DNA of 62,308 nucleotides, the filler included, from Collodictyon triciliatum (lineage: Eukaryota): NCBI GenBank assembly GCA_043381765.1. It is 17 parts of 17 records of this genome, joined end to end, with 100 filler letters (N's around TTAATTAATTAA, not from the genome) between each part and the next. Parts side by side here need not be neighbours in the genome. Positions count along the whole stretch, not along the records: positions 44,065 to 47,632 come from JBHJMP010007132.1; 16 more parts are not named here. One strand, written 5' to 3'. This document shows positions 44,674-46,671 of the stretch, piece after piece. Both the position numbers and the translations under genes were made by a program. Under the pieces are notes generated by a model. That model made no database searches. It worked only from the letters and a program-made list of their open reading frames with translations, and had not been told where the DNA came from. Every line of letters starts with the position of its first letter. Position 1 is the stretch's first letter.

Positions 44674-44792
44674 CTAGAAGGAGTGTACCAATCGAAAGAT
44701 TGGTAAACCAGATGCGCTAGTATCCAAGGTCTCACCACTTTTTTTACATGGTTATGTAGTGGTGAAGGCTGCCAGGAAAGACCCGACAGCCT
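44674..44792 (-). ncRNA. Candidate Fanzor omegaRNA scaffold, copy 2
   Basis: AGGCTGTCGGG-TCTTT-CCTGGCAGCCT forms an 11-bp stem with G-U pairs on the ORF strand. It is followed by TCACCACT/AGTGGTGA and the terminal hairpin. Confidence 0.7.
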
Positions 44793-46671
44793 ATTTTTTA
44801 GAGGAAGGTGTATGGATATTTTGAATGATTGAAAGAACTTTGTTGAGTATATTTATGGCGCTGTTAAAGTCCTTTGTCAGGAATACACTTTGTTTGCTTT
44901 CTGAGCGATTGCATTCTTTACATATGAGAAATCAAACACTTTTTTTTTTGAGTTTCCTTTCGGTGTCATATATTCCAGTTCTTTTTCGCAGTTGCAGCAC
45001 ATCTTGGACGTTCTAAATTCATTTACATCAACCGTTTCAAAACGTTTGGATAGTATTTTTCGTAATCCTCTTCCGATTGTTGGCATAAAATGGTTCGTCC
45101 GATAATTTCTGCCCCAGTCTCCATACGCCAGTACAAAATCCTCGCCAAATGTCTTTTCGATTCGGTTCATAAACAATTGTTCACTTCTTTTTGTATTAAC
45201 ATACTGTCTCCATCTCATCTTACGAAAAGTTACTTGCCCATAAAATCTGGAAAATTATATCTGGCATCTTGATTTCATAGATAAATACTCTCGAAATTTT
45301 TCATAATTGACCGTGCATGAATTATGTTTACTCAGTTCTGTCTCTAAATCGATTAAAAATACTCTTGATGTCTCAAACTGCTGATTCTCTTCAAAAGTCA
45401 TGTGACCAAAAGAAATAGCACTTTGTAAATATGTTGTCATCCACATCCCTTGAGCATTATACTTTTCTTTCTCGCACAAAAGTATTTTGTGATTTTTAAG
45501 AGATTTGCTTTCAAGTCTTCTTTGGTGTGCTGTGTAACGTAATTTCTTACCTGTCCCATCCACCATGCAAACCAAATTAAACTTGCCAGCGTCCAATCTG
45601 ACTATTTTTTTTTGTCGCTAATAAAGATAACTGCTCTTCAAAAAGTACATCTATATAAATACATTTTTGGGTCGTTTGATTAAATTGGATTTTGAATTTG
45701 AAATACCTTTCTTCTCAAACAATAATGACATCGCCAAGCCGTCTGTTTGTATCGTGTATTTAAAAATGTAGTCTGTTCGATGAAAACCCTCTTTTTCATT
45801 TCAAAGAACTTATCCCATAGGGTCTCTTTGCATCCCGATATATTCTTCAGTAATAATGTTTTTCCAGATAATACTAATAGACCTATCAAACATGTGCAGT
45901 ATCTAGAGTAATATGACATGGTATATTGGTAGTTCTTATAGAGATTGGCTAAAACAGTTTGGCTCCGATGTCCTCAAAAATGCGATTCGTGTAAATCAGA
46001 CATGGAATGTGCTTATTCAGATTGACTTTGACGTCATACTCAATACTTTTTACAATATCACTGGGAATCATACGATGCAAATGCGTTGTAGCCCATCCTT
46101 TATATTGTTCTGGTATTTCGAGATTCTTGAAGATGGCTTTCTTTTAACTTTTGTAACTCTGCCTTTTAAACAGCTTCCGTATTATTCTCATCTTTAGGAA
46201 CTGTTTGATTTATGAAGCGCAGTAACCTCTTTACAAAATGTACCTTAATGTTATTATGATAAGGTGCTAGAATTTGCTTCACCAGGTACCATAATACATG
46301 AGACAGTCCAACCAACGGAAAACGTTCTTCTCAGGACAAAAGGAATCGAAATTGTTGAGATAAAAAGTCATGTCGATACTTGTTTCTGGTTTTTTTAAAC
46401 TTGCTGGTCTATCTTGTGAAACTATTCCGACTGTCTTTAAAGCCTACAAAAAAACATTTCATCGATTGTTGGGAGTTGTTGTGATTTCAACATGTAGCAT
46501 CTTGCAAACAGAAAAGTGTCGGTAACCAAGTTATGACACAATAAAACCGTATCTCTGATTTTATCATAGTCATCCGCATTCTTTACAATCGACTTTAGAG
46601 ATGTTTTCACATTCCGATAGTGTTTTTACACACTTTAGATTCTCAGACCCAAGATGGTTTCTTTTCTTCAT
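44791..46671 (-). pseudogene. Fanzor1, copy 2 (~625 codons, frameshifted)
   Basis: LDAGK (RuvC-I D); LRYTAHQRRLES; RKMRWRQYVNTKRSE; YGDW; VNEFRTSKMCCNC (shifted RuvC-II E plus Zn finger); KDFNSAINI (RuvC-III D); TAG at 44791-44793. Confidence 0.92.

Follow-up and report, generated by a model that had tools for sequence, protein, structure and literature searches.

The three homologous, decayed open reading frames that an earlier note described in the window (the whole 62,308-nucleotide stretch of Collodictyon triciliatum DNA that was analysed) are borne out by tblastn, self-blastn, MAFFT alignment and a profile HMM. By tblastn (E-values from 1e-8 to 1e-43), pieces of the copy 2 reading frame match three sites in the window and no fourth: 33.3-34.1 kb (-), 44.8-45.6 kb (-) and 58.0-58.5 kb (+). 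When all six-frame fragments of the window, 2313 in number, were searched with a profile HMM of 15 full-length relatives (610 positions), matches fell in these copies only, where seven fragments in copy 1, eight in copy 2 and seven in copy 3 tile the profile colinearly from position 1 to 591 of 610. The copies are 86.5-87.3% identical to each other in the MAFFT alignment and give long matches of about 85% with self-blastn; copy 2 pairs with copy 3 at 45297-47442 = 58346-56201 and 44673-44910 = 58583-58347. The features are as follows.

33148..35292, minus strand: copy 1, with its ATG at 35224 (self-blastn, MAFFT, profile HMM)
44674..~47540, minus strand: copy 2, about 2.9 kb (self-blastn and end alignments)
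44732..46671, minus strand: Fanzor1 pseudogene of copy 2, ATG at 46671-46669, its fragments covering profile positions 16-591
45591..45593, minus strand: RuvC-I Asp codon of copy 2, in LDAGKF
45018..45020, minus strand: alternative RuvC-II Glu codon of copy 2, in NEFRTSK
44869..44871, minus strand: RuvC-III Asp codon of copy 2, in KDFNSAINI
44674..44796, minus strand: putative omegaRNA scaffold of copy 2, a structured 3' region proposed from fold statistics and a covariance model
~55714..58582, plus strand: copy 3, with its ATG at 56947 (self-blastn, MAFFT, profile HMM)

The span 44674-46671 first reported for copy 2 is exact: on the minus strand it starts with the A of the ATG, at 46671, and closes with the final base of the terminal CTAG, at 44674. 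The likeness of the three copies ceases directly past 44674 and the equivalent bases, and copy 3 ends in CTAG at 58579-58582. The 3' end of copy 2 is placed to the base and its 5' limit is uncertain: on that side the homology with copy 3 enters an (AAT)n tract, which itself runs up to an N mask at 47633. In copy 1 the 5' part breaks off about 60 nt before the ATG, where an (ATTGT)n tract and a 14-N gap interrupt it, and in copy 3 it contains a microsatellite (55778-56260).

A 246-amino acid read-through of copy 2 has three matches in PDB with phmmer at E<=10, and all are Fanzor1 proteins: PpFz1 (4.7e-12), SpuFz1 (8.2e-12) and GtFz1 (2.9e-7). The profile of 15 full-length relatives matches the same structures at 1.1e-85, 5.5e-82 and 5.4e-60, respectively, and no other PDB chain at E<=0.01; the match to SpuFz1 spans profile positions 6-598 of 610, which is nearly the full length. 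No TnpB or Cas12 chain was matched by the fragment at E<=10 or by the profile at E<=0.01. The Fanzor1 identity claimed in the earlier note therefore stands, as fragment and profile match solved Fanzor1 structures only. The feature that the note had used as diagnostic, a Glu-to-Gly replacement together with a shifted Glu, is unspecific. According to the available part of PMC10530073, replacement of the RuvC-II Glu by Gly or Pro with an alternative Glu is found in all Fanzors and in one TnpB subgroup, including Fanzor2 and TnpB2. Because this pattern is not specific, membership in Fanzor1 rests on the full-length match, and sequence comparison supports the three copies as members of the Fanzor1 family that are now pseudogenes.

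The window fragments give only a sub-threshold Pfam match to Cas12f1-like_TNB (E 0.01; it scores 16.4 bits where the cut-off is 26.3), the relative P0002 matches no Pfam family at E<=0.001, and an Rfam scan of the window at gathering thresholds gives no matches; precomputed tables list PF26935.1 for the family. Relatives are numerous, with 1962 at E<=1e-3 among 1.84 billion representatives. The closest intact one, P0174 from an ENA assembly, has 648 amino acids and shares 66% identity with the window copies over the RuvC half and 56-61% over the whole length (60% with copy 2 over residues 1-642). A search of viral contigs for P0174 gave no relatives among 36 pattern matches. Another group of relatives, represented by P0002 and found on the metagenome contigs L001-L008, is 47-55% identical over the RuvC half. 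The window copies have an insertion of about 33 amino acids after RuvC-I, which is common to P0174 and P0001. The window family is a diverged Fanzor1 subfamily, with an identity of about 60% to the closest intact protein.

All motifs quoted in the earlier note are present, distributed across the three copies. VGVDAG is found in copy 1, FRKMRWRQY in copies 1 and 2, RDFNSAKNI in copy 3, and LRYTAHQRRLES, YGDW, VNEFRTSKMCCNC..CKEC and KDFNSAINI in copy 2. The RuvC-I Asp is kept in copy 1 (VGVDAGKF) and in copy 2, where it aligns with the invariant D372 of the relatives' alignment and with DPGK of P0174, and it is replaced by Gly in copy 3 (VGVGTGKF). The canonical RuvC-II Glu is replaced by Gly in copy 2 (YGDW) and copy 1 (HGDW), and the alternative Glu follows 34 residues past that Gly (G496 and E530 in P0002 numbering). 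In copy 2 this Glu, corresponding to the invariant E530, lies directly ahead of a CxxC...CxxC zinc finger, and its NEFRTSK aligns with DEFRTS of PpFz1 and DEYKTS of SpuFz1; the Glu and zinc-finger region of copy 3 is gone through a deletion. The RuvC-III Asp of copy 2, equivalent to the invariant D581, is read in a different frame, past a frameshift at an A-run, and is changed to His in copy 1. It is thus correct that copy 2 keeps all three catalytic residues, but this applies to copy 2 only, since copies 1 and 3 are altered. Copy 2 also has all eight family invariants (D372, E530, T533, S534, C537, C540, C564 and D581). The Fanzor motif of Bao and Jurka, given in the available text of PMC3627910 as D-X(125,275)-[TS]-[TS]-X-X-[C4 zinc finger]-X(5,50)-RD, is found in copy 2 as D...RTSKMCCNC...CKEC...KD, with K for R and a spacing of about 190 residues from Asp to TS. 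The final RD of that motif is RD in copy 3 and RH in copy 1.

With P0174 as guide in a frameshift-aware alignment, copy 2 has five in-frame stops, near 46331, 46166, 45949, 45255 and 44791, and about nine frameshifts; copy 3 and P0174 suggest by comparison that its native stop lay near 44734-44732. The same guide shows four stops, one of them near 34144, about ten frameshifts and an 86-nt poly(A) expansion inside the reading frame of copy 1, and at least one stop and six frameshifts in copy 3. The deletion in copy 3 comprises 388 alignment columns and takes out RuvC-II as well as the zinc-finger region. The stops, ten in total, are each private to one copy and each at a different codon. The dN/dS ratios between the copies are 0.70, 0.75 and 0.92, with differences spread evenly across codon positions, which indicates neutral decay, and the 3' end is conserved among the copies no better than the rest of the element. 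Assembly errors could explain some of the many frameshifts that fall in homopolymer runs; they cannot account for the stops, the deletion and the substitutions of catalytic residues. All three copies are inactive and have drifted neutrally since their origin. The suggestion that an ancestral protein can be reconstructed holds in that all ten stops are private, yet simple majority voting over the three copies does not restore an open frame. The consensus runs into a stop as early as codon 78 and contains 23-24 of them overall, because several frameshifts in homopolymer runs coincide in two copies. The ancestor was also longer than the approximately 625 amino acids first estimated, nearer 650 to judge from the length of P0174.

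The 3' region of copy 2 can be folded into hairpins of 11 bp, of 8 bp across the end of the reading frame and, terminally, of 7 bp (44704-44687), the last with a perfect stem 9 nt ahead of the CTAG at 44677-44674. Copies 1 and 3 have weaker versions of the terminal hairpin, in which the loop sequence is inverted. The fold of copy 2 has a z-score of -3.9 and none of 200 shuffled sequences is equally stable. The stems are the same in all three window copies, and compensatory changes among these copies were found in none of the 43 predicted pairs. In six metagenome relatives, 12 of 66 predicted pairs retain pairing through changes on both sides, and the P0002 group has structured RNA overlapping the end of the reading frame. 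A covariance model built from five of these six relatives has its best match in the window at 44702-44796, in copy 2 (22.8 bits, E 0.0053). Copy 1 ranks second (E 0.26) and copy 3 fifth (E 4.7), neither of which is significant alone, and two unrelated places in the window score between them. The modelled region is also coding, and part of the similarity therefore comes from protein homology. None of seven sequencing runs that were compared had more than 0.08 of the sampled words, and no RNA run was listed as containing them. A candidate omegaRNA-like structured 3' region is supported in silico, and by analogy the flank past 44674 would supply the guide of copy 2. The complete OMEGA system envisaged in the earlier note is not supported as a working one: there are three neutrally decaying pseudogenes and an omegaRNA predicted in silico.

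A Helitron carrier, as proposed in the earlier note, is plausible from the sequence of the right end. The 3' ends are CTAG in copies 2 and 3 and CCAG in copy 1, exactly where the homology stops; the next base is T in all three copies; the terminal hairpin stands in the subterminal position in copy 2 and, more weakly, in the other two. Terminal inverted repeats were not found, the best reverse-complement scores between 5' and 3' ends (28 and 22) staying within the shuffle maxima of 29, in a comparison where asymmetric repeats of 8-15 bp lie below detection. Copy 1 looks truncated at its 5' side with an intact 3' end, as do Helitron-borne Fanzor1 elements of Chlamydomonas in the available text of PMC3627910, and associations of Helitrons with Fanzors are reported there and in PMC10530073 as excerpted. 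The 5' end is not placed and neither a 5'-TC nor an A|TC junction is seen; the 5' boundary region is reached by two copies only, copies 2 and 3, and there the homology enters (AAT)n tracts and the N mask. The window has no further element with the same ends, and an open reading frame listing and a Walker-A scan, which are a weak test, found no Rep/helicase in it (the sole Walker-A motif belongs to a proteasome ATPase). Moreover, CTRRT occurs by chance 2.8 times per kb, the hairpin has a stem that is shorter and richer in AT than a Helitron would lead one to expect and lies inside the expected omegaRNA scaffold region anyway, and another type of carrier bears the nearest intact relatives. That the element was a non-autonomous Helitron, moved in trans by a Rep/helicase and with the CTRR end serving as the boundary between omegaRNA and guide, is therefore a tentative reading that falls somewhat short of an even chance.

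The carrier of those relatives suggests that the element might instead have been of the DDE type (Tc1/mariner/IS630-like) with inverted repeats, the window copies being truncated so that the transposase and the outer ends are lost. On L001 and L003 there is a 3.3-kb unit between inverted repeats of about 30 bp, which carries an opposite-strand DDE_3 and HTH transposase (Pfam E 1.3e-13 and 1.5e-15), a small open reading frame of 65-71 amino acids and Fanzor1, and the right end of the relatives reaches about 60 nt past the point that matches the end of the window element. However, tblastn of the window with both transposases is negative (best E 2.4), the small upstream reading frame is absent from it (best E 0.37) and the inverted repeats were not found at the ends of the window copies. 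All three copies also end at the same base, which independent truncation would not yield, and we regard this origin as distinctly unlikely. Two members of the P0002 group lie on contigs of 254 and 173 kb, where their neighbours are genes for an mRNA capping enzyme and for the small chain of ribonucleotide reductase, and the contigs of these relatives look like giant-virus DNA. A still less probable account dispenses with repeated transposition and derives the three copies from local segmental duplication of one old insertion. The copies do lie within 25.5 kb of window coordinates at a spacing of about 11 kb and their mutual divergence is near-equal. Yet self-blastn finds the sequence beside and between them unduplicated except for microsatellites, their orientations differ (-, -, +) and the 3' flanks diverge at once.

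Comparison with known systems places the window family among the Fanzor1 nucleases and sets it apart in several details. SpuFz1 of Spizellomyces punctatus (PDB 8gkh) and the Fanzor1 of Parasitella parasitica (PDB 9cf0) show full-length colinear likeness at the level of the family profile, although direct matches of window fragments are confined to the RuvC half (E ~1e-11). These proteins share with the window copies GDW or GNW at the canonical RuvC-II position, the Glu in (D/N)E(F/Y)(R/K)TS and the CxxC zinc finger; unlike them, the window copies have the insertion after RuvC-I and are pseudogenes. Spu-1 elements are described with inverted repeats in the available text of PMC10432273, and none were found at the window copies. 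The CRe-1/2/3 elements of Chlamydomonas reinhardtii (Helitron2; PMC3627910, and CrFNuc in PMC10530073, both as excerpted) resemble the window copies in being non-autonomous with Fanzor1 only and in combining intact 3' ends with 5' truncation, and the same excerpts report a conserved non-coding RNA at the 3' end of the Chlamydomonas Fanzor1 genes. These genes are described there with 5-10 exons, whereas the window reading frame is colinear with intron-less relatives. The marks of Helitron2, namely two hairpins, asymmetric inverted repeats and variable target duplications, were not seen at the window copies as far as these could show them, and the 3' CTAG of the window is closer to canonical Helitron1 than to Helitron2. 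P0174 and the P0002 group belong to the same Fanzor1 subfamily and have the same catalytic and zinc residues as the window copies but, unlike these, they are intact; the P0002 group also differs in forming inverted-repeat elements with a DDE_3 transposase. The window family would share its logic with the TnpB of IS200/IS605 (ISDra2), in which a RuvC nuclease is combined with a guide RNA that covers the 3' end of its gene and extends into the adjoining flank, an arrangement consistent with PMC10432273 and PMC10530073 in the parts available. Compared with ISDra2 TnpB, the window protein is longer, lacks the canonical RuvC-II Glu and has a eukaryotic host. An Rpt6 exon marks this host as a protist, being 98% identical to a EukProt transcript and 94% to Balamuthia and MMETSP entries; a U1-70K query found low-complexity matches only.

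The three copies are very probably relics of one family of small elements (about 2.9 kb) that carried Fanzor1 without a transposase gene of their own and whose genes are dead. The ancestral element would have combined a non-coding 5' part of about 870 bp, a Fanzor1 gene that had no introns, ran to about 650 codons and encoded a basic N-terminus (MKKRK), and a structured RNA region that lay over the end of the gene and stopped exactly at the right end. By analogy with the Fanzor and TnpB proteins that have been studied, the protein of an active copy would bind the 3'-end transcript as its omegaRNA, the bases just past the right end would act as the guide, and a single RuvC site of Asp, alternative Glu and Asp would cut matching DNA. 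Such cutting may aid the persistence or spread of the element. The element may have been moved as a Helitron, whose ends its right end resembles. It would go further, and is unlikely, to regard the family as a Helitron-borne protist Fanzor1 in which the CTRR end and subterminal hairpin double as the final hairpin and 3' limit of the omegaRNA scaffold. The cut site of an HUH Rep would then be the start of the guide, the system would be a eukaryotic counterpart of the TnpA-TnpB pair of IS200/IS605, and intact, active copies similar to P0174 would survive in other parts of the genome or in related species.

Research on Fanzor1 nucleases treats them as compact genome-editing enzymes of eukaryotes and as a link between TnpB and eukaryotic transposons. 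The window family is an inactive new member of this already described family. It adds a diverged subfamily with its own insertion of some 33 amino acids and a right end unlike that of its nearest relatives, and the relatives show the same nuclease subfamily in elements with a DDE transposase on contigs that resemble giant-virus DNA. Such contigs are consistent with a spread of Fanzors by viruses, as published in PMC3627910 according to the text available. The copies in the window are themselves dead, and their value is as a pointer to a family that is worth collecting genome-wide.

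The window is eukaryotic DNA with many microsatellites and with host genes that have introns. On the minus strand at 44674-46671, stop-to-stop ORFs bear the motifs from which the earlier note had proposed a family of Fanzor1 nucleases, and these bounds are exactly an ATG start (46671) and the final base of a terminal CTAG (44674). Used as tblastn queries, pieces of this copy (copy 2) match two more sites in the window with E values between 1e-8 and 1e-43: 33.3-34.1 kb (-) and 58.0-58.5 kb (+). Self-blastn of the window gives three copies that are about 85% identical, and the family of three homologous decayed ORFs is confirmed. 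Copy-to-copy identities of 86.5, 87.2 and 87.3% (MAFFT) show that the relation among the three is star-like.

Copies of the Fanzor1 element: self-blastn span, and stops and frameshifts counted in an alignment with the relative protein P0174 as guide
Copy 1 (-), 33074/33175-35292: P0174 residues 1-642, 61% identity, 4 stops, 10 frameshift calls
Copy 2 (-), 44673-47442: P0174 residues 1-642, 60% identity, 5 stops, 9 frameshift calls
Copy 3 (+), 56201-58643: P0174 residues 1-462, 56% identity, 1 stop, 6 frameshift calls

When copy 2 is read through a single TAA (taken as X), the resulting 246 residues have three PDB matches at E<=10, all of them Fanzor1: Parasitella (4.7e-12), Spizellomyces (8.2e-12) and Guillardia (2.9e-7). 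Among 1.84 billion representative proteins there are 1962 relatives at E<=1e-3, many of them 600-700 aa long, and 859 at E<=1e-10. A family profile of 610 positions, made from 15 full-length relatives, matches the solved Spizellomyces protein SpuFz1 over positions 6-598 (E 5.5e-82), Parasitella PpFz1 (1.1e-85) and Guillardia GtFz1 (5.4e-60); no other PDB chain matched it at E<=0.01. Compared with 2313 six-frame fragments of the window, the profile matches only the three copies, colinearly over positions 1-591. The invariant columns of the family, numbered by the relative P0002, are D372, E530, T533, S534, C537, C540, C564 and D581, and their counterparts in copy 2 are LDAGKF, NEFRTSKMCCNC..CKEC and KDFNSA.

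The Gly of YGDW occupies the place of the RuvC-II Glu of most TnpBs, and this Gly together with a shifted Glu had been taken as the Fanzor1 pattern. The diagnostic holds for Fanzors generally but does not mark Fanzor1, because the available text of PMC10530073 describes the substitution and the alternative Glu as common to all Fanzors and one TnpB subgroup. The Fanzor1 assignment itself is sound; its basis is the full-length match to solved Fanzor1, the only chains hit in the PDB. Among intact relatives P0174 (648 aa) is the closest, with 66% identity over the RuvC half. It shares with the window copies about 33 aa inserted after RuvC-I, which are absent from P0002.

All three catalytic residues are kept in copy 2, as claimed, and in the P0174-guided alignment only there. 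The RuvC-III Asp is changed to His in copy 1 and the RuvC-I Asp to Gly in copy 3, which has also lost the RuvC-II and zinc-finger region through a 388-column deletion. Microsatellites have grown inside the dead copies 1 and 3. The ORF of copy 1 contains a poly(A) expansion of 86 nt within 34610-34700, and some 480 bp of purine-rich repeats lie in the 5' part of copy 3 (55778-56260). The 3' flanks of both reach (CA)n in about 45 nt.

The earlier note regarded most lesions as copy-specific and expected a consensus to restore the protein. The former is true of the ten stops, which lie at ten separate codons, but not of several homopolymer-run frameshifts that are common to two copies (for example, copies 1 and 2 share one at the T-run following ..EMFF, and copies 2 and 3 one at the A-run preceding KKIVG). 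Because these coincide, the plain majority consensus of the three copies is not an intact ORF but contains 23-24 stops, beginning at codon 78. Values of dN/dS between copies are 0.70, 0.75 and 0.92 (Nei-Gojobori) and differences are even across codon positions, thus the copies are pseudogenes that have drifted neutrally by about 6-7% each since their common source. The 3' end of the element is no more conserved than the remainder. With stops, frameshifts, a deletion and neutral dN/dS, the window holds relics and not the complete OMEGA system that had been proposed.

Host genes in the window
5383-6733 (-): Rpt6 proteasome ATPase exons
26617-27862 (+): coiled-coil and NHL-repeat protein
32220-32648 (-): CIR_N-domain protein
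48600-50451 (-): U1-70K
52336-53944 (+): DYRK-like protein kinase
60980-61552 (+): PfkB-family kinase

The Rpt6 exon is 98% identical to a EukProt transcript and 94% to Balamuthia and MMETSP entries, and some host-gene introns contain microsatellites. The host is a protist. N blocks occur every ~3672 bp (for example 3575-3674, 43965-44064, 47633-47732, 58644-58743) as 44 N, TTAATTAATTAA and 44 N; they look like masks or spacers, not biology. One conceals the sequence flanking copy 2 on its 5' side, and another that on the 3' side of copy 3. Further gaps are 510 N at 12139-12648 and 14 N at 35338-35351.

The folding energy of the final 262 nt of copy 2 is -60.2 kcal/mol against a shuffle mean of -43.9 (z = -3.9), with none of 200 shuffles as stable, and the last ~125 nt form three hairpins common to all copies. 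Two-sided changes among the three close window copies were found in none of 43 predicted pairs. In six intact metagenome relatives the DNA at the ORF end is much better conserved than the protein, and pairing is kept despite two-sided changes in 12 of 66 predicted pairs. Their final ~100 nt (3348-3445 in contig L001, with counterparts in L003-L006 and L008) are nearly invariant in DNA, whereas the proteins are only 50-88% identical; together with the compensatory stem changes this points to a double constraint, on RNA and protein.

A covariance model from five of the six relatives (98 positions, 33 pairs), run on the whole window with filters off, has its best match in copy 2 at 44702-44796 (-), with 22.8 bits and E 0.0053. 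The equivalent site in copy 1 ranks second (E 0.26) and that in copy 3 fifth (E 4.7), with two unrelated matches between them. The copy 2 match is mainly by pairing, because the stem sequences are entirely different. There is moderate in-silico support for a putative homologous omegaRNA scaffold that overlaps the ORF end and reaches as far as the right end of the element. Sequence past this end would act as guide, as the available texts describe for Fanzors and TnpB (PMC10530073; PMC10432273).

In all three copies likeness is lost straight after CTAG (CCAG in copy 1), and the following base is T. In copy 2, a perfect hairpin of 7 bp is found 9 nt upstream of CTAG. The terminal-hairpin loop is TTTC in copy 2 (44687-44704) and GAAA in copies 1 (33160-33180) and 3 (58553-58570), as though inverted. 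Upstream of the ATG, copies 2 and 3 have about 870 bp in common, entering (AAT)n tracts; in copy 2 the N mask comes next, and copy 3 carries an inserted microsatellite. Copy 1 ends about 60 nt upstream of the ATG at (ATTGT)n and the 14-N gap. No terminal inverted repeats of the element and no other window sequences with its ends were found.

A canonical Helitron has 5'-TC, CTRR-3' and a 3' subterminal hairpin, according to the text available from PMC3627910, and the 3' features of the element appear to fit this description. The proposed Helitron carrier is favoured by the CTAG, the hairpin and the lack of inverted repeats, but a Walker-A scan of the window for a Rep/helicase gave the proteasome ATPase as the sole motif. 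A Helitron is a reasonable, if tentative, lead.

Ten relative loci were collected with P0002 as query. In L001 (174-3503) and L003 (3637-6952) a 3.3-kb unit lies between ~30-bp inverted repeats and contains an opposite-strand DDE_3 and HTH transposase, a small ORF of 65-71 aa and Fanzor1; L004 and L008 have the same repeats. The small ORF is conserved, with the motif RRAYSAEYM.KFR, immediately upstream of Fanzor1. The contigs of L003 (254 kb) and L006 (173 kb), with 33-35% G+C, have dense intron-less ORFs. Among the products encoded are the small chain of ribonucleotide reductase, an mRNA capping enzyme bearing a methyltransferase domain, a glycosyltransferase of family 2 and an LCAT-like lipase, and the contigs look like giant-virus genomes that carry the Fanzor1 element. 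No trace of the DDE_3 transposase or the small ORF was found anywhere in the window, which suggests that the carrier has switched within the same Fanzor1 subfamily.

The Fanzor1 observation in the window is confirmed, and the copies are relics of a known Fanzor1 kind. Fanzor1 in non-autonomous Helitrons is already published, as described in the available texts of PMC3627910 and PMC10530073, and the window adds one more member to the Fanzor1 family, in the form of relics.
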